A stretch of DNA of 45,195 bases from a virus, in the IMG/VR virus record IMGVR_UViG_3300045988_169289. One strand, written 5' to 3'. Below the pieces are notes generated by a model. That model ran no database searches and was not told where the DNA came from. It saw nothing but the letters and a program-made list of their open reading frames with translations. The position numbers were made by a program, and so were the translations under genes. How positions within the stretch are numbered: position 1 is the stretch's first letter; every line of letters begins with the position of its first letter. This document shows positions 11,090 to 32,465 of this stretch, one piece after another.

Positions 11090-11091
11090 TG

Positions 11092-14437: not shown

Positions 14438-14439
14438 AA

Positions 14440-14721: not shown

Positions 14722-14733
14722 TTTCTTTTCTCC

Positions 14734-14970
14734 TTACTTCTTGGATTTCTTCGCCTTCTTCACTCGGCGGTCTTGGCGGTAGTCGTAAGCGTCCTTCAGC
14801 ATCCACGCGAAGCAACGCTGGTCTTCCTCGTTTAATTTCACCGAGGCTTCCGCAGCCGTTTCACCATCGCTGATGCGAATATCGAGGTAAATCTTTCCGC
14901 GGTTTTGGCGCATACGAAGATCAGTTCCTTTGCCGGTGAATCCCTCTTTGGACAGAGATTTCTTTTTCAT
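14734..14970 (-). CDS. Hypothetical basic protein (78 aa)
   Basis: The ORF overlaps the endolysin stop by 4 nt and has Lys-rich termini. No motif was recognised. Confidence 0.45.
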   Translation of the reverse strand: MKKKSLSKEGFTGKGTDLRMRQNRGKIYLDIRISDGETAAEASVKLNEEDQRCFAWMLKDAYDYRQDRRVKKAKKSKK

Positions 14971-15344
14971 TTACTACTCCTGTAGTCCCAAAAAGCGTGA
15001 TGCCCACGCACATCAACATGTACGAATGCGTCGTAAAGTCCGACGCCGCCGTCTTTATTGAGCTCCAGGCACAAGTCCTGAAACTCGGAAATCAGAGACG
15101 GATCATCCGGTCGAATGTCCGCCGCCATGCCTTTCGTGTGATACGAGTTCGGTACAGCCCCCTTGATCGTCGCGTTGTATTCCGGACTGCGGTAGCCCGA
15201 ATTCACGAGAACCGGCTTTCCCCACTCGCGCCGGATGCGGTTCAAAAGGTTCAAAAGTTCATCGCGTACCACGTGCGGAAAAGGAGACTTGTGCGGATCC
15301 TTCGGACTCTGCAACTCCTTTTCATCAAAGAAACCGTATTTCAT
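14967..15344 (-). CDS. Endolysin, peptidase M15 (D-Ala-D-Ala carboxypeptidase-like) family
   Basis: The sequence SGYRSPEYNATIKGAVPNSYHTKGMAADI ... FVHVDVR matches the H-x(6)-D ... H zinc-binding pattern of M15 peptidoglycan peptidases. It is adjacent to the holin gene. Confidence 0.8.
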   Translation of the reverse strand: MKYGFFDEKELQSPKDPHKSPFPHVVRDELLNLLNRIRREWGKPVLVNSGYRSPEYNATIKGAVPNSYHTKGMAADIRPDDPSLISEFQDLCLELNKDGGVGLYDAFVHVDVRGHHAFWDYRSSK

Positions 15345-15628
15345 CGGCCGCCTCTTTCTAGGAATCCTTTCAAAATATTCACCCCATCTTTGCCCATCAT
15401 CCCGCCGAGCCCGGCTAATGCGCCACCGGCTTCATCCGGCAAACCGTAGGAATGAGCCGCCATGCAGATCAAAAAACCGATAAAGCCGGACAGCAACCCC
15501 GCCGCGAAAAATTCACCCCACGGAAAAGGTTTTGTTTTGTCCAGTGAGTTCAATCGCATAAGAAACTGAGCCATAGCCGCCACCATGAAGGCAAAGATGT
15601 ATCGGAAGTATTCGTGGTAGTCCTGCAT
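15341..15628 (-). CDS. Holin
   Basis: 95 aa with at least two TM segments (IFAFMVAAMAQFLM and FFAAGLLSGFIGFLICMAA) and a charged C-terminus. It overlaps the endolysin start by 4 nt. Confidence 0.65.
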   Translation of the reverse strand: MQDYHEYFRYIFAFMVAAMAQFLMRLNSLDKTKPFPWGEFFAAGLLSGFIGFLICMAAHSYGLPDEAGGALAGLGGMMGKDGVNILKGFLERGGR

Positions 15629-18316: not shown

Positions 18317-18935
18317 ACCAGCCTCCCATTTCCTCCGGAAGGCGCATATCACCCGTATAAGGCGTTCGTGCCATATCCACCGAAGTATCCTGCAAAGCGT
18401 CGCGCTTAATAGCGTCTTTCACCATCAGCGTGTAAATCTTCAGTTGTTCTTCTGCCATGGAAGCACCAGTCGCCCCGGTAATCGCTGCACCTGCGAGTTT
18501 GGCCGCCAGCAAATGCGCCAGAGCATCGGCAAAATCCGACGGGAACAACTCAGCCGGCACCAGCGCCGTCGTATACCGAGCCCAATCCGCCGGAACGTCC
18601 GTCAGAATCGCCATACCGTAATCCGACCGTTCCAGATGATAGGAATACAGGTCACGGCCCGACTTGTCGAATACACGCTGAATCTGCAGGCAATCTGACG
18701 GATATCCGTAGGCATAGGCCGCACCAATCGGAGTTTCTTTCAGCTGATTGAGTTTGGTGCGCTTTGTGGCAAATGTCCACGCCGTTTCAGTGAGAATACG
18801 GTTAAGCGCCAACGGGTAGAACCGGGCACAATGATCCGCCTGCGGAGAACCTTCGGGCGGATCAATGGAAGTCACCGTGCCCGTATCGCCGAGATACGAC
18901 AGCGCGATGTTACAAATATCGACAACGGTAGCCAT
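18306..18935 (-). CDS. Tail tubular protein A-like / head-tail adaptor
   Basis: 209 aa. The N-terminus MATVVDICNIALSYLGDTGTVTSID...CARFYPLALNRILTETAWTFA matches a pattern I associate with podovirus adaptor/tubular A proteins. Its position after the capsid genes fits. Confidence 0.5.
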   Translation of the reverse strand: MATVVDICNIALSYLGDTGTVTSIDPPEGSPQADHCARFYPLALNRILTETAWTFATKRTKLNQLKETPIGAAYAYGYPSDCLQIQRVFDKSGRDLYSYHLERSDYGMAILTDVPADWARYTTALVPAELFPSDFADALAHLLAAKLAGAAITGATGASMAEEQLKIYTLMVKDAIKRDALQDTSVDMARTPYTGDMRLPEEMGGWYGR

Positions 18936-19442: not shown

Positions 19443-20441
19443 TTAGCTGATCTTGGCTTCGTCGATGCGGATAGCGTCGTCGGCTTCAATCGGAATCGTG
19501 AAGAAGTGCGTCGCCATCTGTTCGGCAGCTTCCACAATCTTGAGGCACTGCGTGGACTTTTCATAGGCGGCAATTTCCAAGGCCGTCTGAATTTCCGTGC
19601 GGCAAAGCATCACCTGATGACGGCGCAACTGAGCCGGAATACGGTTCTTCGCGCGGATCAGCGTCTTGATAAGAGAATCAGACTGCAGATCAACTTCGCC
19701 ATCCTTCATCGGTATGTTGCACACACGAACGCAGGCTCGCCAATCGTTAAGAGCCGCACCGGGTTGCCACTTGTAGTGGTCAACGTATGCTTCCATCTTG
19801 CCCTTGCCGTCGGGGGCGTCTACAGTCTGCTGACCCTTATCTGTATGCTGCAAACCATATTTCGAGCCCTTCGGGTAAAGTCCGAAGAATTCGTCAAAGT
19901 TAACAATATAGACAGAAGTGTAGCCATCAGCCGTACCGGTATAACCAGCATCAGCAGCAACAACATTGTGCGACGCCGGAACCTTTTTGTTCATCGTGGC
20001 ATAGCGCGTAGCCAAGCCAGTGAACTTGCGAATATCCTTGTCATTGTCGCCGTAATAAAGAGCGGCAGCGACGGCATCGCTCATGCCCTGAATAAAGGCC
20101 TTTTCTTCCGAGAGGCGGAACTGAGCCGTGTTGCCGTTGATATTGGCAAGGTCAATATCAACGTTAGCGTAGTTTTCAACGTTAGAGGTCACGTCCACCA
20201 CAGAGGCAGTCGAAGACTTCGTCGGCTGGACGCCTTCGTACATCCCGCGCCACGTCGGTTCAGGGATGCCAGTTCGGATTGAATGCTTGAAGCCCGTGGT
20301 CATGTTGCATTCGCGCCACGGAATATGTCGCAGGATAGCGTTATTCTGCGACAAGACTTCTGCAATCGGAGCAATCTCGCCGTTCTCATCCGTGCGGGAT
20401 GCGACATCAGCAAGGGTAGGATACTGAGCAATAGCAGCCAT
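19443..20441 (-). CDS. Major capsid protein
   Basis: 332 aa, directly after the scaffold gene. The N-terminus ...VLSQNNAILRHIPWRECNMTTGFKHSIRTGIPEPTWRGMYEGVQPTKS is typical of a podovirus HK97-fold capsid family. Confidence 0.75.
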   Translation of the reverse strand: MAAIAQYPTLADVASRTDENGEIAPIAEVLSQNNAILRHIPWRECNMTTGFKHSIRTGIPEPTWRGMYEGVQPTKSSTASVVDVTSNVENYANVDIDLANINGNTAQFRLSEEKAFIQGMSDAVAAALYYGDNDKDIRKFTGLATRYATMNKKVPASHNVVAADAGYTGTADGYTSVYIVNFDEFFGLYPKGSKYGLQHTDKGQQTVDAPDGKGKMEAYVDHYKWQPGAALNDWRACVRVCNIPMKDGEVDLQSDSLIKTLIRAKNRIPAQLRRHQVMLCRTEIQTALEIAAYEKSTQCLKIVEAAEQMATHFFTIPIEADDAIRIDEAKIS

Positions 20442-20450
20442 GCTTTCCTC

Positions 20451-21137
20451 TTAGTTCATCTTGGAATTGTTGAAAAACCGGGCCAACGGGTCTCCCTGTC
20501 CGCCCTCACCGTTGCCGCGCGGTGAAACGTCGTCGGAGATCGACTGAGCGATCTGATAGAACATCTTGATAATCCCCGGATGCGTATCGAGCCCCGTCTG
20601 TACGAGGAGCTCCCGCGCCTCCGGCGGGCAATACTTCTGAAATGCCTTCGCCGCAATGCCGAGGTTTTGTTTGGCCTTCGCGCCGCCGAGTTCCTTGTCC
20701 GCAGCGAACGCCTTGAGGTTTTCACTCTTGAAGGACGCCAGCGCCTGTTCCTGCGCCTGCTGCAGCACCGGACTCATCTTGTTGATGATCGTGGCAAAGG
20801 ACTTCTGCGAGAGGCCCATTTCGTGGCAGACACCCGCCAACGTTTCGCAAACATCGTCGTTCAATTCCGCGCCTTCGGGAACTTCGATGCCTTCGTTGGT
20901 GTAGGAATCTTCGGGCGCACCGAGCCATTCATTGGGCTTATCGCCCTTGTCCGTCCCGTCGTCACCCGCCGCAGATTCTCCACCATCATTGGCCGCGTCC
21001 GCCCCCCGGGTCGCCGGAGGTACTGCATCGGCGGCAGCGGGCGTACCTCCGGCGACACCGGGATCAGTCGTACCGGTATCAGGAGGCGTAGCGCCAGCGT
21101 CCGCACCGGTATCCGTAACAGTTGCCGCATCTGTCAT
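20451..21137 (-). CDS. Scaffolding protein
   Basis: 228 aa with an acidic, low-complexity N-terminal half and a helical C-terminal half. It lies between the portal and capsid genes. Confidence 0.6.
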   Translation of the reverse strand: MTDAATVTDTGADAGATPPDTGTTDPGVAGGTPAAADAVPPATRGADAANDGGESAAGDDGTDKGDKPNEWLGAPEDSYTNEGIEVPEGAELNDDVCETLAGVCHEMGLSQKSFATIINKMSPVLQQAQEQALASFKSENLKAFAADKELGGAKAKQNLGIAAKAFQKYCPPEARELLVQTGLDTHPGIIKMFYQIAQSISDDVSPRGNGEGGQGDPLARFFNNSKMN

Positions 21138-21454
21138 TTGTTTTCCTCTCGCATTGAATTGATCTGCTCTTCAAGCCCGGCCGAGCGAAGTCGCCGGAGA
21201 ATGTCAAGCCCTACATCGCGCCGAGCACTGAGGAGCATCATTCGCATCGGATCAGTACTCGTCACCGAGTCCGTCTGCCCCGTAAGGGAGAGAACCCAGT
21301 GCATTGCCCGACGGCCGAACTCGGTTTCCATCAGGCTTTTCAGCGCGTTGTCGAGTTTCTTTTCTTCCTGCTTTCGCAGCCGTTCTTCTTCTGCGCGGGC
21401 TTCTTCCTCTTCGAAAATGCCCTGCATCCGAGTGTCTGCCATTGTTTCCGTCAT
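21134..21454 (-). CDS. Small conserved head-module protein (Bbp19-like position)
   Basis: 106 aa between portal and scaffold. It overlaps the scaffold start as ATGA. It has a Glu-rich N-terminus followed by RRAMHWVLSLTG...ARRDVGLDILRRL. Confidence 0.4.
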   Translation of the reverse strand: MTETMADTRMQGIFEEEEARAEEERLRKQEEKKLDNALKSLMETEFGRRAMHWVLSLTGQTDSVTSTDPMRMMLLSARRDVGLDILRRLRSAGLEEQINSMREENK

Positions 21455-21463
21455 CCCATCACC

Positions 21464-21474
21464 TTTATGGACGG
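21464..21474 (-). promoter_or_regulatory. Conserved motif CCGTCCATAAA, copy 3
   Basis: The plus strand reads tttatggacgg. The motif starts 2 nt after the portal TAA stop and ends 9 nt before the ATG at 21454. Its CCGUC can pair with GACGG, which overlaps the last base of that start codon (AUGACGG). Confidence 0.5.
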
Positions 21475-21476
21475 CC

Positions 21477-23144
21477 TTACATCACGCCCTGAGAGGGTTG
21501 CTCTTGTTCGGGACTCATCGCTATATCCGCGCCGCCGACACTGCCTGCCGCCTGCCCCAAATCCTTGATAGTGGAAGCCGCTTGCGCCGCCTGCATCTGC
21601 TGCTGTTGCTGCGCCTGCTCTTCGGCGCGCTGCTTGCGAATGATTGCCACCCGAGAGCCCGCAACAATCATGGACGGCGGAACGCCGTTCATATCCGCCA
21701 AGAGATCAATCGTTTCATCGGCATCCAATTTGTCAAGCGCTTCCGGCCGCATCTGCGCCAGAACGCCAATCTGCTGCACCGTGCGCATAACGCCGTCCAC
21801 CGCAGAACTTTTCTGCATCTGCGCCAGTACCGAGATATATTCAACATTAAGTTCCTTCCCCTGCATTTCCTGCGGAGGCTCAGGCACCAAGTCAGCTTCT
21901 ACGAGATAGCCGAACGCCGTGGACACCAACGGATCAAGCATTTCCGTGTGGAGACGCTCAAGTACCGGCCCGAGCATCATCACCTTTTCCTGTTCCAACG
22001 CCTGGATTTCGGTAGCCGTACGGTCAGTACCTTGATTCGCCGCGATCATCTGGAAGATGTTCACATTGAAGTAGCGCTGTATCTGCGCCCGTGCGTCTGC
22101 GATCTGCGCCTGCAGCATTTCAGGCGATGCCTGCACTGCCCAAGCCGAGCGAATCACGTCATTGTCCGCAGGGTCAACCGGGATGCGACCGCCGGGACGG
22201 AATAGCTGCATTGCGCCCTTGTACTTTGTCGGGTATTGAATCGGTGGATTCGAGAGATAATCCGTGAGGATGCCCATCTGCTTTTGCAGGCGCTGCAGAC
22301 TTTTAGCCGCCGACAAGGCTTTCGCACCGGGGCCACGCCCGTAAACAGAGCCAGCCGTCGTGAGCCATCGGGGACACAGCGCCGGAAATTGGTCATAGCC
22401 GGACTCACCCAGCACCTTGCCGTCACTGCGGCCTTGTTCCCAATACACAGACCGCCACGGCTTATTGTGGTTGTCGTGCTTCATCACGTTACGGTCAAGA
22501 CGCGGCTCAATGGCGTGCATCACGTCAAAGCGACGGTACGGGTTATCGCGTAAGGAACTTCTGACATCGTTGCTGACGGCATCGATACCGAACTTCTGCA
22601 CCATCTGCTTCGCCGTCATGCTGATATGACGATAAACCGTGTCGATACGGTCGAACGGATCAGCCGCGAGCCAGTATTCCCCAACCGTAAGATTCATCAT
22701 ATCGATGACACGGTCAGGGTGACGCTGCACAATGGAACACGCCGTCCCGAACGCCGGAAGCTCAAGATAGGAGCGATGCAGCGAGTTGTAGACCTCAGAT
22801 TTTGCGAAATACATCAAAATCAAGTCCTGCAGGTCAGACAGCCACTGTTTCACGTCCGGCGATTCGTCTAAGTCCGGATCCATTGTGGTGAGACGCAGCC
22901 ACGGCCGCGACGGCGAACTGACGCCGGCCAAGAGCCCAGCCGCCAAAATGTCGGCACTGTCGGCGGCTTCGGCGTCGTAGAGACGCGTGTAACGCTTTCC
23001 GCCCTCGTACCCTTTCTCACCAGGGAACGCCCCTAAGTCCGGCACCTCATAGTCGCGTATGTCGTGCCAAAGGTTTTCCCACGTCTCACGTTCCGCTTTC
23101 AGCCCGGCCAAGCGCTGCTGAAGCTGCTTGACATCAACTGCCAT
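21477..23144 (-). CDS. Portal (head-to-tail connector) protein, podovirus type
   Basis: 555 aa. The N-terminus ...ERETWENLWHDIRDYEVP...RLYDAEAADSADILAAGLLAGVSSPSRPWLRL resembles T7 gp8-type connectors. Its position upstream of scaffold and capsid fits. Confidence 0.8.
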   Translation of the reverse strand: MAVDVKQLQQRLAGLKAERETWENLWHDIRDYEVPDLGAFPGEKGYEGGKRYTRLYDAEAADSADILAAGLLAGVSSPSRPWLRLTTMDPDLDESPDVKQWLSDLQDLILMYFAKSEVYNSLHRSYLELPAFGTACSIVQRHPDRVIDMMNLTVGEYWLAADPFDRIDTVYRHISMTAKQMVQKFGIDAVSNDVRSSLRDNPYRRFDVMHAIEPRLDRNVMKHDNHNKPWRSVYWEQGRSDGKVLGESGYDQFPALCPRWLTTAGSVYGRGPGAKALSAAKSLQRLQKQMGILTDYLSNPPIQYPTKYKGAMQLFRPGGRIPVDPADNDVIRSAWAVQASPEMLQAQIADARAQIQRYFNVNIFQMIAANQGTDRTATEIQALEQEKVMMLGPVLERLHTEMLDPLVSTAFGYLVEADLVPEPPQEMQGKELNVEYISVLAQMQKSSAVDGVMRTVQQIGVLAQMRPEALDKLDADETIDLLADMNGVPPSMIVAGSRVAIIRKQRAEEQAQQQQQMQAAQAASTIKDLGQAAGSVGGADIAMSPEQEQPSQGVM

Positions 23145-24078: not shown

Positions 24079-24543
24079 TCACAGACTCCTTATAAATGTC
24101 ACCTGACAGCCTGAATGCGGCCGTTTCTGCAAAGCCGCGGCGAGTGGTGCTTGCTCGTCGCAGACCCACTGAAACGACGTACACCCCCGCTTTTTTGCCT
24201 CACGCTCACACATCACAAAAAGCCGTCCGGGCACCGTCGTCCCTCGGTATTCGGGCAATACGAAAATCGTGTCGTTGCAGGCCGTGAGTTCTCCAGAATG
24301 CTGATGAGGCGCGACAAAGATCGACGCAGCCCCCACCGCTTTTTCTCCGTCGTAGGCGACAAAGGCAAACGCCAGCGAGTTTTCGGAGAGTGCGCGGTAG
24401 AAGTCTTCCGTCGGATCAAAGATCGGGCCGTTACCTGATTCGCGGAAATTCGTTTCCAGCAAATCTCGGTGCTTCCGCAGCAGGTCATAACAGGACATGA
24501 GTACGTATCGCATACCCGCAGTTTCAGCGGGGCGACGGTACAT
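24079..24543 (-). CDS. GNAT-family N-acetyltransferase-like protein
   Basis: 154 aa. ...AFVAYDGEKAVGAASIFV...IFVLPEYRGTTVPGRLFVMCEREAKKRGC resembles the GNAT acetyl-CoA-binding core. The alternative start M11 (ATG at 24513) lies 1 nt after a CCCGC-N7-GCGGG hairpin (24515..24531). Confidence 0.55.
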   Translation of the reverse strand: MYRRPAETAGMRYVLMSCYDLLRKHRDLLETNFRESGNGPIFDPTEDFYRALSENSLAFAFVAYDGEKAVGAASIFVAPHQHSGELTACNDTIFVLPEYRGTTVPGRLFVMCEREAKKRGCTSFQWVCDEQAPLAAALQKRPHSGCQVTFIRSL

Positions 24544-24575
24544 TTATGGACGACAATCGCTCAATCGTCCATAAA
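24543..24575. promoter_or_regulatory. Divergent pair of the conserved motif (copies 2 and 2b) forming a 33-bp palindrome
   Basis: tttatggacga (24543..24553), 11 nt, then tcgtccataaa (24565..24575). One copy faces the GNAT gene on the minus strand and the other faces the Com-like gene on the plus strand. Confidence 0.6.
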
Positions 24576-24630
24576 CTTCAAAGCCCTGCAAATACGATGC
24601 GTTCATGAAATTTCATGGGAGGGTACTGCA

Positions 24631-24843
24631 ATGGAAGTTCAAGTCCGTTGCCGATGCGGCAAACGCCTTTTCGACCTTTCGCTAGACAGGCCTCCAGGCG
24701 GACGCATCTACATCTTGTGTCGCTGTAAAACGATGAACGTCATCGACCTTTCCGCGTATTCCAATCTGCAGGCCCATTCGGAGCCTGTTTCAAAAGAGGC
24801 CCCTGAGCCCACTTCTCAGCGCCAAGCGAGCGCACAATCCTGA
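24631..24843 (+). CDS. Com-like zinc-finger protein (candidate translational regulator)
   Basis: 70 aa. SD GGGAGGG lies 8 nt upstream. MEVQVRCRCGKRLFDLSLDRPPGGRIYILCRCKTMNVIDL resembles phage Mu Com (RCxxCxKLLF ... IRCPRCK...I.L), but with CxC instead of CxxC knuckles. Confidence 0.45.
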   Translation: MEVQVRCRCGKRLFDLSLDRPPGGRIYILCRCKTMNVIDLSAYSNLQAHSEPVSKEAPEPTSQRQASAQS

Positions 24844-24856
24844 GAACCTTGAGTTC

Positions 24857-24879
24857 CATAGCAAAAGGAGTTTGCTATG
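24857..24879 (+). promoter_or_regulatory. Translation-occluding hairpin over the SD and start codon of the 209-aa gene
   Basis: CAUAGCAAA-AGGAG-UUUGCUAUG is a perfect 9-bp stem. The 5-nt loop is the SD AGGAG, and the AUG (24877..24879) is the last three stem bases. Confidence 0.7.
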
Positions 24880-25506
24880 GCTGAATTTGCTTCTAAAGGT
24901 GTTGCCGGTAGCGCCCTTGGTCTGGCTATCGGTGGCTTGTCTGCTGCTTTGCTGCAGGGCGGCAACGGTGGAATCCTCGGCGGCCTCTTTGGTGGAAACA
25001 ACTGCGCCCCGCAGATGGCCGCGATGGGCGTCATTGCTGAAAAGGACGCCAAGATCGCCGAGCTCACTTCGCAGAAGTACTCGGACAATCGGGACGCGAC
25101 GCTTTATCAGGCGACGCGCTCTGAAAACGAGAAACTCGAAAATCGTCTGATGGCTTTCATCACGCCGCTTTCTCAGGAATCCGCGAGCAACCGCGAACGC
25201 GTCGCCGTGCTTGAAGCTCAGCAAGCGAAGAACGGTGAAATCGCCGACCTGCGCGAAAAGCTCATTCGCTCCGAACTCGGTGCCAAGATCGATAGCGTTG
25301 CTCAGACGTGCGGCTGTGGTATTGCCCAGCTCAACAACGCCGTTGCCGGTATCAACAACACGTTGAACCAGATCACCCACACGGTTATCCCGCGCACGGC
25401 GATCTGCCCCAAAGTGATGGAACGTTACAACAGCTGGACTGCGCCCACAGCCGCGGCTCCGGCGGTTCAGCCGGTGACCGGCAGCATCAACGTCAACCGG
25501 GGTTAA
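24877..25506 (+). CDS. Glycine-zipper / coiled-coil protein of unknown function (209 aa)
   Basis: The N-terminus is KGVAGSALGLAIGGLSAALLQGGNGGILGGLFGG (a glycine-zipper-like hydrophobic segment). A long heptad-like charged region follows, then a Cys-containing C-terminal domain. Confidence 0.6.
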   Translation: MAEFASKGVAGSALGLAIGGLSAALLQGGNGGILGGLFGGNNCAPQMAAMGVIAEKDAKIAELTSQKYSDNRDATLYQATRSENEKLENRLMAFITPLSQESASNRERVAVLEAQQAKNGEIADLREKLIRSELGAKIDSVAQTCGCGIAQLNNAVAGINNTLNQITHTVIPRTAICPKVMERYNSWTAPTAAAPAVQPVTGSINVNRG

Positions 25507-25509
25507 GCC

Positions 25510-25845
25510 ATGAGAATGCCGATTGGAAACTTGCCTGCGGTGGTTGTGGAATTTGCTCAGCAAGTCCTCATCCCCGCGGCAGAAAAGCAGGGCGGCTCTC
25601 TGCCCTTCGCCGTCGGCATCGTCTCGGGGCTCGTCGCACAGCGGGCCCCGGCGATGATCGAACCTTATCTGCCGATGCTCAAGTCATTAGGAGCGGTGGA
25701 TGAGCAAAACCGCATCGACGTGGACTTGCTGTACGGCGAAGCCTCAAAGAATCTCGAAGCGCATCCGTTCTCCATCGGGCCTTATAAGCCTGACCGAGGT
25801 GACTTAGATGCGCTGAAGGAAATCATGAACCGGCATGGAGAATGA
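25510..25845 (+). CDS. Hypothetical protein (111 aa), cassette member
   Basis: The ORF starts 4 nt after the 209-aa gene stop. No motif was recognised. Confidence 0.5.
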   Translation: MRMPIGNLPAVVVEFAQQVLIPAAEKQGGSLPFAVGIVSGLVAQRAPAMIEPYLPMLKSLGAVDEQNRIDVDLLYGEASKNLEAHPFSIGPYKPDRGDLDALKEIMNRHGE

Positions 25846-26027
25846 TTATGGAAATGAAGGAACTTATGAAAGCCCGCGCGGAGCAATCCATGCACTGCCT
25901 GCTCGAAAAGATCGACAAGGTATGCGATGAGGCCCGCGACAGTGGCGGCTTAAGCGGTGAGGACGTTCGCACGCTTGAAAAAGCGTGGTGCGCGGTAGCC
26001 ACCATCAAGGCCGTGTGCAAGGAGTAA
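25842..26027 (+). CDS. Hypothetical small helical protein (about 60 aa), cassette member
   Basis: It overlaps the upstream gene as ATGA. SD GGAGA suggests an alternative start at 25848. It is followed by a terminator. Confidence 0.45.
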   Translation: MIMEMKELMKARAEQSMHCLLEKIDKVCDEARDSGGLSGEDVRTLEKAWCAVATIKAVCKE

Positions 26028-26032
26028 CGAAA

Positions 26033-26062
26033 AACCCCGGTTCATCGCCGGGGTTCTCTTTG
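26033..26062. terminator. Bidirectional intrinsic terminator between the plus-strand cassette and the minus-strand AT-rich genes
   Basis: AACCCCGG-ttcatcg-CCGGGGTT is followed by ctcttt on the plus strand. On the minus strand the same stem is followed by TTTCGTT. Confidence 0.7.
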
Positions 26063-26127: not shown

Positions 26128-26649
26128 TCAATAGATTGCCGGAATCGGTATTCCGCCGATAAAGGGTGGAATGCCATTTTTATTCTCACGACGCCGAATC
26201 ATTTTTTTAAGATTTCGCTGTACTGTCGGCGCGTTCTGATTCTTCGCGAGCCATACCCGCGCCGCCTGCATCAACCCGTGGCAGAAGTCCAAGACGTCCG
26301 TGAGATAGGTCTCGTTGCAAACATTGTTGCTGAGGTGTATCCGGCCGTTTGGAATCGTAAGGATCAGCTTTTTGTTGCCTTTGCGGTCATCCACAGTCCC
26401 CGTATGAAGGAGATCATTGCGAAGCTGCTTCATCAGTTCGGGTGTCGCCAATGAGAAAAACTCTTGCGGCAGGTTCTTTTCGCACCATGCTACGTAGTTC
26501 ACATTCTTCGCCCAAAAGCCCTCTGTTTCTAAGGCCGCGCACATATCAGGCAGAGTAAGCGCTGCCATCGTTGCGACGACATACAGTTCGGCCTTAAGCG
26601 CCCTGTCTATCTCGTCCAGCAGCATTTCGACGCAGTTCGGCTCCGACAT
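26128..26649 (-). CDS. Candidate HEPN-like (DUF4145-like) protein, 173 aa
   Basis: SD AAGAGGAGAA precedes the ATG at 26649. The protein is helical and carries an Rx4H motif RNDLLH at aa 77-82, the hallmark spacing of HEPN RNase domains. The gene is AT-rich. Confidence 0.35.
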   Translation of the reverse strand: MSEPNCVEMLLDEIDRALKAELYVVATMAALTLPDMCAALETEGFWAKNVNYVAWCEKNLPQEFFSLATPELMKQLRNDLLHTGTVDDRKGNKKLILTIPNGRIHLSNNVCNETYLTDVLDFCHGLMQAARVWLAKNQNAPTVQRNLKKMIRRRENKNGIPPFIGGIPIPAIY

Positions 26650-27151: not shown

Positions 27152-30100
27152 TTAACTCCAAGTTTGTATTTTTGACAGCGCTTCAGCGCCTTCAAAATCG
27201 AGGTTGTTGCTGTTGCTTAAAATCTTTGTATTCGTAGCTTTTTTTCCCACGAATACATGGAAAAACTCAGAAGCCCCGTCCAGGTTTTGAACATCAAATC
27301 TATTGCTGTCTATGTCTATAGCGACTTGACTTGTTTCTATGTTTTTGTTCAAAACAGAAACTACGTGTATCACTCCCGCCTTCGTATTATCGGCGGAATT
27401 TCCACGACGACTTTCGTTCAAAAAGCTGTTGCCACGAATTCGCACGAGACATTTACATGGAGCATCGTGAAGGAAATATATTGAAAGGTAAGCGGCAAAT
27501 TCAGAACCACTATTATCGGATGGCCCCGCAGAATCAAAGCAATTATTTTCTATGTTTATAACCCTTGTGAGAACAGGACGGATATATAGCGGGCCCAATT
27601 CTCCGCTCTCCGCGCACGGAACAGCCCCAACAAAAGAATTCGTGATTGAGATTTCTTCAAAGGCTGTACCATAATACTTTGCGTAAGGTGCCGGCGATAT
27701 AGCGCAATTATTTAACTTTAAAATTTTTCCTGTATTTGAAATTACATTTCCGCTATTGAACCACCAGAAAACTCTAGAGTCGGAGATATAAAGAGCGTTA
27801 ATATAAGACGATTCCCAAAAAACAAATCCAGGAACATCCGAATTGACAATTGTCATGTTCCCTATGTATTTCGCCCCTATCAGGAATCCGGGAGTGTTTT
27901 GATCAGAGCGATCAACGTATCGTTTTACATTAGTCGAATTACAAATTCGAATGCTATGAATATCACTAGCCGCAAAGTGATAACCTGTTTGCCCGATTAT
28001 CTGATTATCGGACAGAGTAATGACCTTCGCCCCCATCGACAGGCCGTCCAAGACGCTGTTTGTCACGCTCATCTTCAGTACGTCGCCATGCGAGTCGCAC
28101 GAATACTTTCCCGAGTAGGATTTAAAAACGCAGCGATCAATGAAGACGTTATCCGAGTTGATAGATACCAATGTGCCGTCAAGTAAAAATCTTGCCCCCC
28201 CGGACGCGAAGCAGTGCCAAACGCATTGTGCATTGGTTTGCTTGACGTAAATATTTTTGCAGCCAAACGAGACGATACCATACCGAACGTTGCCACCATT
28301 ATTAACGACGGTCGCGCCATCGATGGATACGCCATGGCAAAGATTCGTCGACAATGCAATGTAAGGGTTTGCATCAGCGAATCGAACGCCGTCAATAGTA
28401 AGATCAACAACATTGCTAAAAACCAAAAGTTCCACGACTTCGGTTTTTAGCTTTGTAGAAAATCTTCCGCCAATAACCCTAATGTTAGATAAGGTATTTT
28501 TAAAAAGCAGAATATCAGAGCTGTCCTTATCGAAAGGCAGGGTTAGCGTATCAATTAGCTTAAGTTCATTTCCATCAATTTCGTTGACTCTTAAAAGTTC
28601 GCCTCTTTTATAATATTTTCTCGATGTGTCTATATTAGTATTCTTGTCGACAATAGCCGCAAGTTTATAGCCCGCATTCTCTTTTTCTTCTGTCAAGAAA
28701 AGATCGTGGTTTGTATCGGCCGCAAGGCACGAGACAGTAATTACAACCGATTCTCCATACGCAACCGTCGCCGAAACAGTGACTACGGGGTTATTGCAAG
28801 TAAAATCGGTGTTACTGTCGCTATCATGAAACGTCGGATTATAATCGACAGCATATTCATCGCTTGATAGTTCCCTGTCTTTTATGTACACATTCGTGAC
28901 GGTAATACTTGTTATTCCGAATACAGGTATTTGGTATCTATTACCCGCTGAACGTTTAAACTCAAAAATTCTCGTCGAGCGTACGGCTACGCTTTTGCTA
29001 AGATTGGCTCTGTCGTATGTTACGTTTGTATCACCACACACGAAAATATGCGTGTTATTTTCGGCAATAATATCCGCGCCGCCAAAATCGAAAACTTTAT
29101 TTGACTTCTTATTGATAACCGCATCAGACACCAGATAGGAGCGGGAGGAAAATTTAACCACCCCCGCATCGCTATCAACTGCCAGCTGAATAGCTTGTCG
29201 GTCATCGGTTACGCCATCCCCAACGGCGCCAAACTGATCTACCGAAACCGTGTCCCCATAGATAAGCAACTCAGCCAGCAACCCGCCGAGCAGTTCTTCA
29301 GAAAACTTCTCGGTCGACTCCACGATCCGGTAGACCGCGCCACCTCCATCCCCCGGCTCATAGTATCCCTGTGTAACCGCCGTCATCCCGGGCGCTAGGA
29401 ACTTCGCCACCTTCATATCGGCAACGGACTTAAACACGTGGGGCTTCGCGGCGAGCCAGTCGAGTACCGGCAACGGCGACGTACCGCCCGGCATTATCAG
29501 GGACTGTCCCCCCGTAATCGCGTTTGCCTGCTCCGCCCACCCCTTGGCCTCGGCCGCATAGTCCTTCGATTTCAGCAGCTCTTCGAGGTTCTTCGCGATC
29601 GCCGCAATGGCCTCAGCGTTTTCCGCCGTGACACCGACCGACTTGATATTTTCGGACACGGTGACGATCTGATCCTTAAATGCGAGGAGTTTGTCGGCGT
29701 ACTCTTTGGAAGTGGCCGCAGAGGCGGCGGCGTTCGTCTCGGACTGCAGAGCCTTAGCCGCCGCATCAAGCGCAGAAGCCGTTGCTTCGAGCAACTTATC
29801 GCGTAGCTGCCGTGGGGTGATGGTGTCCGTGGGATCAGTAATGAGCGCGCGATTGACTTGCTCGACAAGCTGCTGACAGAGAATCGTCAGCCGGTCGAGC
29901 GAATCATTGAGCACCGTCGGAAAGAACGCCCCTCGGTTTGTGAAAACCGTCGGCTGTACATAGGCTTCGCCCGAGATAACGGCAAGCGCCGCGCCTTTTA
30001 CCAGTGGCTCCTTAAGCGTAATCTTGCCGCCAGGGTTGACATCTTGGTCGTCATTAAGGACGCAGACGTACGCATTTGGGTTAAGAACCGCATCAACGCC

Positions 30101-30226
30101 ATGGGGCGGCGCAACGTGAACTTCGGCATCCTCAGACTTCAGTAATTTGAAAGAAAAAGAAAACTGCGTCTGCACACCGTCGCCGACATAAATATCGCTT
30201 CGGCGAAGTTGAGATTGAATAGCCAT
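27152..30226 (-). CDS. Tailspike / tail fibre with right-handed beta-helix (pectate-lyase-like) depolymerase domain
   Basis: 1024 aa. The N-terminal virion-anchor region is MAIQSQLRRSDIYVGDGVQTQFSFSF... The motif DQFGAVGDGVTDDRQAIQLAVDS (about aa 330) is typical of the pectate_lyase_3 / tailspike fold. The C-terminal two thirds are Asn/Ser/Val-rich and AT-rich. Confidence 0.8.
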   Translation of the reverse strand: MAIQSQLRRSDIYVGDGVQTQFSFSFKLLKSEDAEVHVAPPHGVDAVLNPNAYVCVLNDDQDVNPGGKITLKEPLVKGAALAVISGEAYVQPTVFTNRGAFFPTVLNDSLDRLTILCQQLVEQVNRALITDPTDTITPRQLRDKLLEATASALDAAAKALQSETNAAASAATSKEYADKLLAFKDQIVTVSENIKSVGVTAENAEAIAAIAKNLEELLKSKDYAAEAKGWAEQANAITGGQSLIMPGGTSPLPVLDWLAAKPHVFKSVADMKVAKFLAPGMTAVTQGYYEPGDGGGAVYRIVESTEKFSEELLGGLLAELLIYGDTVSVDQFGAVGDGVTDDRQAIQLAVDSDAGVVKFSSRSYLVSDAVINKKSNKVFDFGGADIIAENNTHIFVCGDTNVTYDRANLSKSVAVRSTRIFEFKRSAGNRYQIPVFGITSITVTNVYIKDRELSSDEYAVDYNPTFHDSDSNTDFTCNNPVVTVSATVAYGESVVITVSCLAADTNHDLFLTEEKENAGYKLAAIVDKNTNIDTSRKYYKRGELLRVNEIDGNELKLIDTLTLPFDKDSSDILLFKNTLSNIRVIGGRFSTKLKTEVVELLVFSNVVDLTIDGVRFADANPYIALSTNLCHGVSIDGATVVNNGGNVRYGIVSFGCKNIYVKQTNAQCVWHCFASGGARFLLDGTLVSINSDNVFIDRCVFKSYSGKYSCDSHGDVLKMSVTNSVLDGLSMGAKVITLSDNQIIGQTGYHFAASDIHSIRICNSTNVKRYVDRSDQNTPGFLIGAKYIGNMTIVNSDVPGFVFWESSYINALYISDSRVFWWFNSGNVISNTGKILKLNNCAISPAPYAKYYGTAFEEISITNSFVGAVPCAESGELGPLYIRPVLTRVINIENNCFDSAGPSDNSGSEFAAYLSIYFLHDAPCKCLVRIRGNSFLNESRRGNSADNTKAGVIHVVSVLNKNIETSQVAIDIDSNRFDVQNLDGASEFFHVFVGKKATNTKILSNSNNLDFEGAEALSKIQTWS

Positions 30227-30289: not shown

Positions 30290-31636
30290 TTAACGCCACG
30301 ACCTATCGAACTCCTCGTTTGCGTCGTAGTCGTTCGAAGAGCCGTAGAGCTGCCGTTCGAGCCGCTGATCTAGTTTCGGCGCGACGGGCGCGGCGAAGGT
30401 GAGCGCCAAAGCATCCGCCAAGTCAGGGCTTCGCCCAATGCGTTCCTTGATCTTGTCTTTCGACTCCAAAATCTTCAGCCCTTTGCCCGTGGTGTAGCCG
30501 TACGTCGGCGCGGACAAGTCAGCCTGTAGCATCGTATCCGGAGGGATTGCCCCGCCGTCTTGTAGCCATTTCGCCATTTCCGCCCACATTTCCATGCGTT
30601 TATTTGCGTAGTGCGGATCAGAAGAGGCACCGGCAAAGGCCACTTCCGTCACGTCAAACCGCAGCTGACGCAGACGGTCAACGACGCCCGCCCCATTGCC
30701 AATATCGATAAACACCGCGTCCGGTTGCCATTCCCTGATCTGAATCGCCACCTGATCCGCGAGTGCCATATTGTCAAGTTTCCGGATAACAGTCGGCGGC
30801 CAAGACACGACGCCCTGACGCTTGAATATCACGGACGCATCAGACCCGAAACGCGCCACGTCAACGCCCATGATGCGCGGAGACGCGGCGTAATCGTGCT
30901 CTCGGTACTGTCGGCACGCAGCAGCGCGGACGGTATCAATCGGGATCAGCACATTGTCGGCCGCTGCATTGAAGTCGCACATGAATTCCTGACGGAACTC
31001 ATTCTCGGACATTTCGAGTTTCAACGCCTGTAATTCTTCGTCCGGAATGACGTGTGTCCGATCCACCGAGTACACCATCGCAATCCAATCGGGGTCACCC
31101 GCCGCCATGCGCTCCAGCGCCTTGTCATACATCTGACTGAAGAGGTTCACCCCCTTCGGCGTTCCGATGAATACCGCCCACCCCTTGCGGTCAGCGAGAG
31201 CCGGGCGCAAGACTTCCCCCCAAACTTCGGGCTTCATCTGCGCAACTTCGTCAAGAATCGCGCCGTCGAAGTATGCGCCGCGCAGGGCGTCCGGATTATC
31301 GGCACCATAGATGCGAATAGTGACACCGTTCGGTAGCGTGATGGACAACTTCTGCTCATTGACCTTGCACATCGGTATTGCGGCCGTGTAGTGCTTCAAA
31401 TAGCCCCAGGCGATCTGTTCGGCCTGATTCCGGAACGGCGCAATGTAGGCGTAAAAGCCTCGCTCCTTCGCGTCAACGATAGCCCGTTTAATAAGGTGAT
31501 TAACGCTGAGAACCGTCTTACCCAAGCGACGATGCGCCACCAGGACACCGAAGCGGTGAGTTTCAAGCGCCTGATGAATCTCGTCCTGAGGATACCGGGG
31601 CGCGTAGGGAATTTTTATCCGTAACGGTAAAGTCAT
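30290..31636 (-). CDS. terL: Terminase large subunit
   Basis: 448 aa. Walker A-like VAHRRLGKTV and Walker B-like GAILDEVAQM are present, followed by a C-terminal nuclease-like region. It overlaps the TerS stop by 4 nt. Confidence 0.85.
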   Translation of the reverse strand: MTLPLRIKIPYAPRYPQDEIHQALETHRFGVLVAHRRLGKTVLSVNHLIKRAIVDAKERGFYAYIAPFRNQAEQIAWGYLKHYTAAIPMCKVNEQKLSITLPNGVTIRIYGADNPDALRGAYFDGAILDEVAQMKPEVWGEVLRPALADRKGWAVFIGTPKGVNLFSQMYDKALERMAAGDPDWIAMVYSVDRTHVIPDEELQALKLEMSENEFRQEFMCDFNAAADNVLIPIDTVRAAACRQYREHDYAASPRIMGVDVARFGSDASVIFKRQGVVSWPPTVIRKLDNMALADQVAIQIREWQPDAVFIDIGNGAGVVDRLRQLRFDVTEVAFAGASSDPHYANKRMEMWAEMAKWLQDGGAIPPDTMLQADLSAPTYGYTTGKGLKILESKDKIKERIGRSPDLADALALTFAAPVAPKLDQRLERQLYGSSNDYDANEEFDRSWR

Positions 31637-32085
31637 TCTTTGTCGCTACTCCATCCGATGCTGAGACCACCCGCAAACGTCGTCTTATTGTCCTTTTCGT
31701 AGAAACCGACGTGCTTTCCGATCAACTCAAGTGCCTTATTGGCTGCCGGTGCGTCTACCTGTTCCTGCACCTGCAGTCCTGCATCGTCGTAGACCGGAGA
31801 CCGACATTCGCCATCGAACTCGGTTTTCCCGTAAGTCTTGGCATTGATCCGGTATTGGTCGATATGCCACTGCAGCACCTGATCCTGAGTGATTTCGAGC
31901 CGTTGCGTTCGAGCGGCTTTTCCGTCCGCAACAGCCTCCATAACGTTAACATTTGACAACAGGCGGGACGCCTGCTCACGCGCCGTCTTCGCACTATATC
32001 CCGCCCGAATTGCAGCCTGAGTCGCGTTAAGATCGACAAGGTACTCTTGCACAAATCGTTCCTGTTTCGGCGTCAGTTTCGGCAT
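31633..32085 (-). CDS. terS: Terminase small subunit (P27/Terminase_2-like)
   Basis: MPKLTPKQERFVQEYLVDLNATQAAIRAGYSAKTAREQASRLLSNVNV is the typical N-terminal HTH of this family. I chose the internal ATG at 32085 within ORF 31633..32145. Confidence 0.8.
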   Translation of the reverse strand: MPKLTPKQERFVQEYLVDLNATQAAIRAGYSAKTAREQASRLLSNVNVMEAVADGKAARTQRLEITQDQVLQWHIDQYRINAKTYGKTEFDGECRSPVYDDAGLQVQEQVDAPAANKALELIGKHVGFYEKDNKTTFAGGLSIGWSSDKE

Positions 32086-32465
32086 TCTCTCCTCTCCCAA
32101 TGATCCACAACTCTCCCCCGCATGAGCCCTGCCGCCACAGCCCATACAGTTGATTTTGGCATATCAAGCATATCGGCTATGGCCTTGAAGCTGAACCCCT
32201 CATCCCGCAGCTGAAACACCTGATCTATCTCGGCGTCAGTGTACTTTGCCACCGGCGAGTCCTCCCCAATCCGAACCCCGTTGCTGCTCACTGCCACCAT
32301 CCGCAAAGAAACTCGGACACTCTTGGCGGGCTTGCGCGACGGCGTTTTCGATGACACGCTTGCGGGAGATTGACTCTTTTGGCAAGGCTTGGGCTTCGGC
32401 GGCAGCCCGGGCAAGTCGGGTTGCCACCAAAGGCGGGAAAACAAAAGCAATTCCGAGTCGTTCAT
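32073..32465 (-). CDS. HTH-containing protein (130 aa), candidate late-gene regulator
   Basis: The C-terminal half, AKYTDAEIDQVFQLRDEGFSFKAIADMLDMPKSTVWAV, looks like a sigma-70 region 4 or resolvase-type HTH. The N-terminal half is Pro/Ser/Lys low-complexity. It lies immediately upstream of TerS. Confidence 0.45.
   Translation of the reverse strand: MNDSELLLFSRLWWQPDLPGLPPKPKPCQKSQSPASVSSKTPSRKPAKSVRVSLRMVAVSSNGVRIGEDSPVAKYTDAEIDQVFQLRDEGFSFKAIADMLDMPKSTVWAVAAGLMRGRVVDHWERRECRN

Follow-up and report, generated by a model that had tools for sequence, protein, structure and literature searches.

What is a small block of plus-strand genes doing inside the minus-strand late region of a gut phage, and why should it be headed by a gene recalling the translational regulator Com of phage Mu when its cargo is not Mom? 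Decades of work on Com have dealt almost exclusively with its control over Mom, its target motif has been defined biochemically, and two reports describe the wider regulatory role of com-like genes as unexplored (PMC6240691, PMC4684702). The locus analyzed here lies in a 45,195-nt stretch of viral DNA (the window), which is a BPP-1-like temperate prophage of a gut betaproteobacterium and carries an integrase. Our answer is that a known switch, in a new variant, probably gates an uncharacterised module that is itself probably associated with lysis.

Gene layout and boundaries of the cassette

That four plus-strand genes break the minus-strand late block, as an earlier note on this DNA had proposed, is borne out by the list of open reading frames, which places genes of the sizes given there (70, 209, 111 and 61 aa) at 24631-26027. 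An independent gene call for this contig puts all other genes across about 15.6-35.5 kb of the window on the minus strand, and the PHROG-assigned genes from 687 to 36455 lie on that strand throughout. The first gene encodes a Com-like protein, and the remaining three (the trio) are referred to below as big, mid and small (Table 1).

Table 1. Features of the cassette and its leader; coordinates are those of the window.
Feature	Position	Strand	Description
Divergent control region	24544..24630	.	Between GNAT gene (minus) and Com-like gene; assigned from sequence
Inverted repeat	24544-24574		TTATGGACGA-N11-TCGTCCATAA, in divergent control region
Palindrome	24604-24617		CATGAAATTTCATG, in divergent control region
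SD of Com-like gene	24617-24623		GGGAGGG, in divergent control region
Com-like zinc-ribbon protein, 70 aa	24631..24843	+	CxC...CxC knuckles C7, C9, C30, C32
Candidate Com-binding hairpin 1	24819..24833	+	GCGC[CAAGCGA]GCGC; CC(N)4GAG, C-G closing pair
Candidate Com-binding element 2	24842..24857	+	GAGAACC-UU-GAGUUCC; exact SELEX motif match
Putative translation-inhibition (start-codon) hairpin	24856..24880	+	10-bp stem; arms CAUAGCAAA (24857-24865) and UUUGCUAUG (24871-24879); 5-nt loop AGGAG (24866-24870) with SD GGAG (24867-24870); AUG (24877-24879) in 3' arm
Big protein, 209 aa	24877..25506	+	Conserved N-terminus MxEFASKG; Gly/Ala-rich TM-like helix 10-26
Mid protein, 111 aa	25510..25845	+	Starts 3 nt after big-gene stop; predicted four helices and small sheet
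Small protein, 59-61 aa	25842..26027	+	Start overlaps mid-gene stop (ATGA); likely two-helix; four Cys in window allele
Bidirectional intrinsic terminator	26033..26062	.	9-bp stem, AACCCCGGU (26033-26041) paired with GCCGGGGUU (26047-26055); common to cassette and convergent minus-strand gene 26128-26649

Upstream, the divergent control region folds with a z-score of -2.3 in comparison with shuffled sequences, and a search of it for a sigma-70-like promoter found none, from which we infer an activator-dependent promoter. The adjacent GNAT gene was considered as a Mom-like neighbour and discarded, since it bears no resemblance to Mu Mom. Downstream, the cassette had been credited with a terminator of its own. 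A terminator is indeed present, but its stem is as stable read from one strand as from the other (z -3.1 and -3.0, with no shuffle among 200 as good) and its U-run is better on the minus strand; hence, we regard it as bidirectional rather than as belonging to the cassette. The canonical lysis cassette of the phage lies about 9 kb away on the opposite, minus strand (14024-15628), and comprises a LydA-type holin (15341-15628; PF16083, E 5e-9), an M15 endolysin and Rz and Rz1-like genes that are separate from the plus-strand cassette (14024-14437).

A diverged Com-like zinc ribbon

The 70-aa protein combines a zinc finger with a disordered tail rich in Pro, Ser and Gln. Its knuckles had been read as CxC rather than CxxC, and they are so (C7-x-C9 and C30-x-C32), while the zinc-ribbon cysteines of Mu Com are C6, C9, C26 and C29 (PMC3299994). 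All four cysteines are invariant in the 12 aligned family members. CxC occurs in both knuckles of the window allele and of its near-identical copies (L003, L016, L017, L026 and L027) and CxxC in all other aligned members, so that the window protein is missing one residue per knuckle. Judged from this alignment, the CxC/CxC form is specific to one lineage, its relatives being canonical. The CxC knuckles could be defective in putative zinc binding.

The likeness to Com claimed for this protein holds for its family and not for its own Pfam match. The window protein has no match to PF10122 (Zn_ribbon_Com) at E<=1, and it matches PHROG 6417, a 'translational regulator', at E 0.032. Four of the 12 family members do match PF10122 (best E 3.3e-5). 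Among the relatives compared by bit score, the best reaches 19.5 against a gathering cut-off of 22.9 bits. The family profile, on the other hand, aligns with Mu Com in hhalign at a probability of 96.5% (E 7.5e-10) over 32 columns, covering Mu residues 3-34 and thus the whole finger. These comparisons support the placement of the putative zinc-finger protein in a diverged branch of Com. The gene is directly upstream of the big gene and co-oriented with it, both in the window, where 33 nt separate them, and in every locus that has one (about 30). A blastn search with the cassette against 50,697 phage records returned nothing, and neither did tblastn with a canonical Com-like relative.

Leader hairpins and their comparison with Mu

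A hairpin presenting the SD in its loop and burying the AUG of the big gene had been described with a 9-bp stem 14 nt past the Com-like gene; the hairpin stands, this 9-bp stem beginning with the 14th nucleotide beyond the stop codon, and it extends to 10 bp through C24856-G24880. Folded alone it is stable (dG -12.3 kcal/mol, z -3.7, none of 200 shuffles as good), and in an 81-nt context its z-score is only -0.9 to -1.1. It is conserved in relatives, and three of its pairs covary through compensatory changes. Across 20 leaders, which are not phylogenetically independent, 89% of cells pair and five pairs show double changes; the covariation score is matched by none of 500 shuffles, and pairing is 21-50% in slid controls. 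At L006, where protein identity is 30%, the same three-hairpin layout is rebuilt from different sequence (z -3.1).

The other two hairpins of this layout, unnoticed in the earlier note, are of Com type and abut the start-codon hairpin as in Mu. Hairpin 1 is contained in the 3' end of the Com-like gene in the window and is intergenic in many relatives; since none of the 19-20 rows in which it is covered shows a change in the stem, it yields no covariation signal. In stem and loop type it equals the Mu target AUGC[CUGCGA]GCAU and the Com-Dam leader of phage B3, GCGC[CAUCGA]GCGC, to which it is nearly identical. Element 2 reproduces exactly the recognition motif defined for Com by SELEX, GAGNNCC(N)2-3GAGNNCC (PMC6483171), and can form a hairpin, GAAC[CUUGA]GUUC (24844-24856), with CC(N)2GAG in the loop and a C-G closing pair. 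Two of its stem pairs covary, and its 3' CC is common to the base of the start-codon hairpin; in the minimum-energy fold of the free window leader this second hairpin does not form.

The exact SELEX pattern occurs twice in the window against an expectation of 0.14, and it is found in the leaders of 27 fetched loci, the other Com-positive leaders carrying CC(N)2-4GAG variants. Three to four motifs are present in all leaders that follow a Com-like gene, including two loci in which this gene is disrupted or undetected (L021, L025), and in none of 12 Com-negative leaders, though lineage and GC content vary along with this contrast, the Com-positive loci all having about 50-56% GC. The energy needed to open the ribosome-binding site was tried as a further discriminator and rejected, given that the ranges overlap (11-14 kcal/mol in Com-positive and 3-16 kcal/mol in Com-negative loci). 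Further motif copies were observed outside the leader, at window position 2258 and, in the L009 group, on the minus strand after the cassette. These copies belong to a conserved, structured and terminator-like element near the integrase (2245-2318 in the window), which holds three GAGCNCC motifs. Its interpretation as a tRNA or attachment-site remnant was dismissed, as ARAGORN finds no tRNA, and an Rfam search assigns it to no family; possibly, it serves Com as another target or as a decoy.

The arrangement closely parallels com-mom of Mu, where a small four-cysteine zinc ribbon is likewise encoded just ahead of its target, on a shared transcript, a C-G-closed hairpin with a CC(N)xGAG loop lies partly inside the com reading frame, and this binding hairpin touches a second hairpin with the SD in the loop and the start codon in the 3' arm. 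The locking hairpin of Mu, CCCAC-ggagaaacauu-GUGGG, has a 5-bp stem as opposed to 10 bp here. The window differs also in its two upstream Com-type hairpins (loop spacers of 2 and 4 nt), in its CxC knuckles, in the lack of overlap between its genes and in a cargo of three non-enzymatic proteins in place of a DNA-modification enzyme.

The Com likeness might be superficial, the zinc ribbon having a different function, for instance in binding DNA, and the hairpin affecting mRNA stability alone, or the CxC variant might be inactive and its cargo silent in this lineage. For family members, Com is equalled or outscored by generic zinc-ribbon families of Pfam, the window knuckles are each one residue short, and the ribosome-binding site is occluded in some Com-negative loci too. 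We nonetheless judge this unlikely: the profile match spans the whole Mu finger, the cis motifs are exact matches to the SELEX consensus that track the Com gene across lineages, and the CxC allele recurs together with intact cis elements in independent assemblies, including an isolate of Duodenibacillus massiliensis.

Cargo proteins

The features attributed to the big protein, a membrane-like N-terminus, a long helix and a cysteine-containing C-terminus, are confirmed by hydropathy (best 19-residue window 1.74, at residues 8-26) and by the AlphaFold model, which comprises helix 10-26, a Gly-rich linker, helix 45-169 of about 125 residues and a low-confidence Cys/Pro-rich tail, with an overall pLDDT of 61.6 and low confidence outside the long helix. 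Its C-terminal motif, ICPxxMxRxNSWxAPT..APAxQPVxG, is invariant, and its N-terminal half varies as a mosaic between cassettes with neighbours that are about 98% identical. The family forms 471 clusters at 50% identity, with no fusions. The big protein has no match in Pfam, PHROGs, NCBIfam, PADLOC, PDB or BFVD, Foldseek returned nothing for its model, and PDB sequence searches with the big and mid families gave only coiled-coil noise.

The mid protein is modelled confidently (pLDDT 92, pTM 0.81); its fold has no match in the PDB (best E 3), and its only fold relatives are uncharacterised phage proteins, including crAss-like ones. Homologues of mid are syntenic in all divergent loci examined, and small, called as 59 aa in the independent gene call, can be aligned across them. 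Inspection of the mid and small sequences revealed no signal peptide or lipobox motif, nor a SAR segment in mid. None of the three proteins matches a holin family in Pfam or PHROG or contains an enzyme domain. That the cargo is not Mom-like, as previously stated, agrees with a BLASTP E of 1.2 between the 209-aa protein and Mu Mom. The cassette was also rejected as a known defence system, since PADLOC models match none of the window proteins and only at noise level their relatives (E 0.006-0.03), and an NCBIfam search of the cargo yielded only noise.

Com-linked cargo other than Mom has precedents, and the claim that the cassette resembles no described system was therefore overstated. In phage B3 (ORF47-ORF48) and in FluMu Hin1523, Pnm1 Nme1821 and Hia5, a Com homologue directly precedes a DNA methyltransferase (PMC3299994); as opposed to the trio, these cargos are still DNA-modification enzymes. 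In the accessible parts of two reports on Pseudomonas R-tailocins, com-like genes (PF10122) precede LlpA bacteriocins, other bacteriocins, a lytic enzyme and cargo of unknown function (PMC6240691, PMC4684702), the tailocin lytic enzyme following a com-like gene in some strains (PMC6240691). As in the window, non-modification cargo forms there a mobile unit with a com-like gene in phage-derived clusters, sometimes at the lysis cassette. The cargo families differ, those parts of the reports contain no cis-RNA analysis, and the hosts are Pseudomonas as opposed to gut Sutterellaceae and Oxalobacter.

Distribution and lysis-gene neighbourhood

The trio is found in gut phages of Sutterellaceae and Oxalobacter, in Bacteroides phages and in contigs binned with other diderm gut taxa, and the order big-mid-small is kept in every locus examined. 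Homologues occur in DAC16-type Bacteroides phage isolates, the neighbouring genes in DAC16 being all annotated as 'hypothetical'. In 37 of 60 related loci, holin, endolysin or Rz genes lie in the same orientation as the trio and no more than 2 kb from it. At least six arrangements show this adjacency, L021 adding a divergent one, and the holin and endolysin families differ among them; at L015 the trio is flanked by a holin (E 2.3e-27) on one side and by a lysozyme (E 6.5e-36) on the other. In the window and in roughly half of the context types it lies away from recognised lysis genes, and searches of Pfam, PHROG, PDB, NCBIfam and Foldseek gave no homology or fold evidence for a lysis role. The trio was discarded as a primary lysis system because the window phage has a holin, endolysin and Rz/Rz1 of its own.

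The switch could be real and the cargo an accessory 'moron', providing superinfection exclusion or a toxin or bacteriocin with its immunity, parked near lysis genes and prophage ends, where insertions are tolerated. The cassette is mobile, adjoining an integrase or host junction at L009, L039 and L054 and a repressor at L004, and in the window it is a stand-alone unit on the opposite strand with its own control region and a terminator. A mosaic N-terminal half is what would be expected of a specificity determinant, bacteriocins are among the Com-linked cargo in the accessible tailocin accounts (PMC6240691, PMC4684702), and Sequestin, an unrelated anti-defence gene, lies inside the L054 lysis cassette, which points to the lysis region as a general hot spot for accessory genes. 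Against this stand the lack of any PADLOC match, the homologues in DAC16-type Bacteroides phages, the fold relatives of mid in crAss-like phages and an adjacency to lysis genes that, recurring in so many arrangements and even between holin and endolysin, exceeds random parking. We hold the accessory reading to be doubtful, if a serious contender.

In a further reading, the big protein would be a virion- or fibre-associated coiled coil of the fibritin type, with the two small proteins as assembly chaperones. It has a long single helix with conserved termini, the trio follows tail-fibre genes (Gp10_C, DUF4376) at L059, L060, L062 and L065, and the window tailspike gene is about 1 kb away. Yet a hydrophobic Gly/Ala-rich N-terminal helix is unusual in a soluble fibre, translational gating and opposite-strand placement are atypical of structural genes, there is no structural PHROG match and the trio occurs in podo-, sipho- and myovirus-type genomes, whose tails are unrelated; this makes a fibre role very unlikely.

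A proposed Com-timed envelope module

On balance, we lean towards a translational switch of the Com type, which would control a conserved module of three genes that acts at the envelope late in infection and is functionally linked to lysis. In the scheme that we infer for RNA binding, unlocking, coupling, membrane topology and lysis role, the four genes would be transcribed as one unit from the putative activator-dependent promoter. The Com-like protein would be translated freely, with the big gene presumably locked by the confinement of its SD and AUG within the 10-bp hairpin. Accumulating Com would then bind the two upstream CC(N)2-4GAG loop hairpins. The second of these overlaps, by its last bases, the foot of the locking hairpin, and with Com bound the ribosome-binding site may open. 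The mid and small genes would follow through translational coupling, as suggested by the 3-nt gap and the overlapping ATGA. The outcome would be a delay and a threshold, so that leaky or early transcripts would give no cargo.

The big protein would be anchored in the inner membrane by its glycine-zipper-like helix and project a helix of roughly 18 nm ending in the conserved Cys/Pro motif, with the two small helical proteins as its presumed partners. Holin T of phage T4, with about 210-220 aa, has one N-terminal TM helix and a large Cys-containing periplasmic domain, and its lysis is tuned by two small partners of about 60-110 aa, RI and RIII, the genes t, rI and rIII not forming a contiguous operon. 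The likeness of the trio to this set is an analogy of size and topology, no similarity of sequence or fold being detected, and mid, unlike the T4 partners, lacks a signal or SAR segment. Rz-type i-spanins also combine an N-terminal anchor, a long helical periplasmic domain with cysteines and a location in lysis cassettes. The trio, however, has no outer-membrane lipoprotein partner, and the same phages carry separate Rz/Rz1.

Among the toxin, exclusion and lysis-timing functions suggested earlier, gene context favours a lysis-timing module. Since Com would delay the trio relative to directly translated genes, we favour a pro-lysis or end-stage role, as a trigger or envelope-disrupting accessory, over that of an early antiholin. 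It is also possible, if only tentatively entertained, that the trio is an unrecognised and widespread component of the lysis programme in phages of diderm gut bacteria, in which a membrane-anchored protein spanning the periplasm would trigger lysis or disrupt the envelope under regulation by two partners, with its timing set by Com in betaproteobacterial phages.

About 30 natural and diverse pairs of Com and leader with covarying hairpins, one branch of them CxC in both knuckles, provide material for testing how RNA is recognised by Com and how a ribosome-binding site is opened by it. The trio itself spans hundreds of protein clusters that lack annotation and includes one confidently predicted fold without a solved relative, and its recurrent position in lysis cassettes offers a testable hypothesis for genes that pipelines label as 'hypothetical'. 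Should the trio prove to be a Com-timed lysis component, Com would here be seen for the first time in the role of a lysis clock.

Leader RNA upstream of the cargo genes

The cassette of four plus-strand genes, which encode a 70-aa Com-like protein followed by the proteins termed here big (209 aa), mid (111 aa) and small (about 60 aa), is very probably governed by a Com-type translational switch, and the leader RNA that precedes big furnishes the strongest new evidence for it. Com, the zinc-finger translational activator of Mom in phage Mu, recognises hairpins of 3-4 bp that have a C-G closing pair and contain CC(N)2-3GAG in their loop; its SELEX consensus is GAGNNCC(N)2-3GAGNNCC, and its native site, GAAUGCCUGCGAGCAUCCC, touches the translation-inhibition structure containing the mom start codon (Nowacka et al., PMC6483171). 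We read the Mu leader as AUGC[CUGCGA]GCAU, then CCCAC-ggagaaacauu-GUGGG. In the window, a first hairpin (element 1), GCGC[CAAGCGA]GCGC, precedes GAGAACC-UU-GAGUUCC, which forms hairpin 2, GAAC[CUUGA]GUUC. Directly 3' of this motif, and sharing its first C's with it, lies the locking hairpin, with AGGAG as its loop and the AUG in its 3' arm. This last structure, proposed in an earlier note with a 9-bp stem, is real but extends to 10 bp; folded alone it attains -12.3 kcal/mol (z -3.7, with 0 of 200 shuffles folding as well), and within its 81-nt context the fold is unexceptional (z about -1). Hairpin 2 is absent from the minimum-energy fold of the free window RNA, and the opening energy of the ribosome binding site does not separate loci with a Com-like gene upstream of big (Com-positive) from those lacking one.

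By chance, 0.14 copies of the exact bipartite pattern would be expected in the 45-kb window, which has two. The pattern is also found in the leaders of 27 fetched loci, the remaining Com-positive leaders having CC(N)2-4GAG variants instead. In phage B3, the accepted Com-Dam operon has GCGC[CAUCGA]GCGC. Within the last 90 nt, every leader following a Com-like gene contains three or four CC(N)2-4GAG motifs and 12 of 12 leaders without such a gene contain none, a difference confounded with lineage and base composition because all Com-positive loci come from lineages of about 50-56% GC. In an alignment of 20 leaders, 89% of cells pair, and double-sided changes are seen at five pairs, two in the Com-type hairpin and three in the locking hairpin; none of 500 shuffles reaches this covariation score, and pairing falls to 21-50% when the 3' partners are slid. 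The stem of element 1 shows no variation across leaders. Locus L006, from Oxalobacter, encodes a big protein that shares only 30% identity with that of the window; the L006 leader reads GAGCGCC-ACA-GAGCGCC, then GAGCACC-CA-GAGUGCC, then CUUUUGCCA-aaggagaaaacaa-UGGCAAAAG, a different sequence with the same three-hairpin layout (z -3.1), and in another locus (L061) AACGC[CGCGA]GCGUU is nested in a helix engaging the SD by base pairing.

A conserved structured element near the integrase gene presents three GAGCNCC motifs, which follow the bipartite pattern of the Com target (GAUGUCCC-GAGCGCC-AA-GAGCGCC-UGAGACACGGAACCCC-GAGCACC-...CCCCGGGGUUC-AAUUUUA). The element terminates in a GC hairpin of 8 bp; a stretch of 131 nt that includes the element folds with z -3.0, and minus-strand homologues lie at about 5180-5250 of seven related loci (L009, L010, L014, L019, L020, L035, L038). 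It is always about 300 nt upstream of the integrase gene and antiparallel to it, and is adjoined by direct repeats of TTCCCTAGT resembling arm-type sites. The element is not a tRNA and Rfam gave no match; candidate identities are a small RNA, a terminator module, an element associated with attP and a second target of Com.

The Com-like zinc-ribbon protein

Searched alone, the 70-aa protein of the window has no match to the Pfam Com family and a weak, full-length match to the PHROG 'translational regulator' (E 0.032). About 60 related loci were recovered, and in about 30 of them a small zinc-ribbon ORF lies directly upstream of the big homologue. The products of these ORFs share 38-62% identity with the 70-aa protein, and most have canonical CxxC...CxxC knuckles. 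A profile of 12 family members aligns with the entire finger of Mu Com (96.5% probability, E 7.5e-10; the Com sequence used matches the Mu genome at 100%), and four of the 12 reach PF10122 (best E 3.3e-5). The N-terminus of the Oxalobacter Com-like protein, MDAIRCKNCNKKLL, may be compared with that of Mu Com, MKSIRCKNCNKLLF. The CxC/CxC form of the window corresponds to the deletion of one residue per knuckle, and is not a sequencing error, because it is common to near-identical copies from independent assemblies, an isolate genome included.

Two loci keep a full Com-type leader (motifs and hairpin) with a Com-like ORF that carries a frameshift in its first knuckle (L025, 3730-3942) or is not detectable (L021, upstream of 4001). 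These are possibly natural loss-of-activator variants or assembly errors.

A widespread three-gene cargo module

Clustering of the big family gives about 2,000 clusters when the identity level is 90% and 471 when it is 50%, all of its members being 80-260 aa long and none fused to another domain. Its invariant core is a C-terminal ICPxxMxRxNSWxAPT..APAxQPVxG; the N-terminal MxEFASKG is conserved, and a few types of the hydrophobic, Gly-rich segment exist and are interchangeable. AlphaFold predicts a helix (10-26), a disordered glycine-rich linker, a single helix (45-169, pLDDT up to 90) and a C-terminal tail at low confidence. The predicted fold of mid is confident (pLDDT 92, pTM 0.81). Foldseek gave no related solved structure (best E 3), the sole structural relatives of mid being uncharacterised phage proteins, crAss-like included. 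The small protein is helical, and its sequences can be aligned between all lineages. The cargo proteins have no matches in Pfam, PHROG, NCBIfam, PADLOC or PDB sequence searches. All examined loci, low-GC Bacteroides-type contigs without Com among them, have the three genes in the order big-mid-small.

Recombination has made a mosaic of the big gene (24877-25200 against L003, L016, L017 and L025-L027). In these cassettes mid and small, and Com where intact, are 93-100% identical to the window and big only 59-78%. Family alignments place most of the differences in the N-terminal hydrophobic, Gly-rich segment and the initial portion of the helix; the few N-terminal segment types, e.g. LANGVGIPALVLGSLGFL, recur in very distant homologues.

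Genomic setting of the cassette

PHROG and Pfam searches identify the window as a temperate, BPP-1-like podovirus-type prophage. In the isolate Duodenibacillus massiliensis Marseille-P2968 (Sutterellaceae), a prophage (L003) has a Com-like gene and a leader that are almost the same as those of the window; its mid and small proteins are 98% and its big protein 64% identical to their window counterparts. The four cassette ORFs lie where the earlier note had placed them and are indeed the sole plus-strand genes inside the late block. The terminator that the note assigned to the cassette is stable, but equally so on both strands, and therefore also serves the convergent minus-strand gene. The control region spans 87 nt with two palindromes, and no sigma-70-type promoter was detectable upstream of the cassette. 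The neighbouring GNAT acetyltransferase was rejected as Mom-like, since it does not resemble Mu Mom (E 30); an inverted repeat begins right at its start codon and may thus control both directions. Elsewhere in the window, the reverse transcriptase was rejected as a retron or DGR enzyme because it is encoded within a group II intron.

Features of the window
Feature	Position	Strand	Remarks
Integrase	687-1937	minus	PHROG/Pfam
Conserved structured element	2245-2318	plus	about 70 nt
Virion and internal-core proteins	2319-13976	minus	PHROG/Pfam
Rz-like i-spanin	14024-14437	minus	
Embedded Rz1-like lipoprotein	within 14035-14364	minus	lipobox LVQGC
Two small unknown ORFs	14440-14970	minus	within lysis cassette
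M15 endolysin (Peptidase_M15)	14967-15344	minus	E 5e-15
Holin, LydA-type	15341-15628	minus	PF16083, E 5e-9
Tail tubular proteins	15692-18935	minus	PHROG/Pfam
Major capsid protein, protease/scaffold, portal	19443-23144	minus	PHROG/Pfam
GNAT acetyltransferase	24079-24543	minus	divergent from Com-like gene
Inverted repeat	24544-24574		
Cassette genes	24631-26027	plus	
Element 1	24819-24833	plus	
Bipartite motif with hairpin 2	24842-24857	plus	
Locking hairpin	24856-24880	plus	
Terminator	26033-26062	both	
Tailspike-like protein	27152-30226	minus	PHROG/Pfam
Terminase	30290-32145	minus	PHROG/Pfam
Replication genes	up to 36455	minus	PHROG/Pfam
C4 antisense RNA	41857-41941	plus	early region; P1/P7-type immunity RNA; RF01695, 66 bits, E 9e-11
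Group II intron	43305-45092	minus	Rfam domains D1-D4 and 3' domain
Intron-encoded reverse transcriptase	43392-44720		

Association with lysis genes

As the window phage has a canonical, complete lysis cassette (14024-15628) away from the module, we reject the latter as its primary lysis system. Among relatives, tblastn with Pfam-confirmed holin, endolysin and Rz sequences, which detects known lysis genes only, places the module co-oriented with lysis genes and at most 2 kb from them in 37 of 60 related loci, which are not independent, and in at least six arrangements; L021, with a divergent module, is a further lysis-adjacent case. The holin and endolysin families differ between arrangements, which argues for repeated association over the inheritance of one block. 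In the window type and several other lineages the module is placed away from lysis genes.

Position of the module relative to lysis genes in related loci
Arrangement	Loci
After holin-M15-Rz	L001, L007 group, L054-56
Before holin-M15-Rz	L002
Between holin_4_1 holin (E 2.3e-27) and lysozyme (E 6.5e-36)	L015, L018
Between lysozyme and holin	L041
After lysozyme, with or without Rz	L006, L013, L058, L061, L065
Before holin-lysozyme-spanin	L046, L059, L062

In a related prophage (L054-L056), a Sequestin-family (PF21825) anti-defence sponge gene (6716-6964, plus strand) has the endolysin gene on one side and the Rz-like gene on the other. It precedes the putatively Com-gated module by two genes, and a DUF3310 gene stands immediately 5' of the Com-like gene. 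The lysis neighbourhood thus tolerates unrelated accessory genes.

Proposed mechanism and relation to known Com systems

The Com-like gene would be co-transcribed with the cargo and translated freely, and its accumulating product would bind the two loop motifs and open the adjacent locking hairpin. Translation of big would follow, together with that of mid and small through coupling, which we propose because of the 3-nt gap between big and mid and the overlapping ATGA of mid and small. Cargo synthesis would be delayed and thresholded, as for Mom, the early expression of which harms the host (PMC3299994). Since gating would put the module behind adjacent genes that are translated directly, for example the holin gene of L015, we infer that a pro-lysis or end-stage envelope role may be favoured over that of an early antiholin. 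The case for a lysis-associated cargo is evenly balanced, and we lean slightly towards the combined reading of a Com-type switch with a lysis-linked cargo module.

The experimentally studied Com cargos are all DNA-modification enzymes (Mom, B3 Dam and the Hin1523 family; PMC3299994). Nonetheless, Pseudomonas tailocin cluster surveys describe com-like genes before several other cargo types, comprising bacteriocins (lectin-like and others), cargo of unknown function and, in certain strains, a lytic enzyme, and the review states that the general role of Com still awaits exploration (PMC6240691, PMC4684702). A non-Mom cargo behind a com-like gene, having already been noted in those surveys, is therefore not itself new. 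The present case joins a diverged Com branch, here in the CxC form of the window, to a clearly readable Com-type leader and a widespread new cargo module. The regulatory logic is a known one. Experiments would be worthwhile on the cargo, on its association with lysis cassettes and on the series of Com and leader variants that nature provides.
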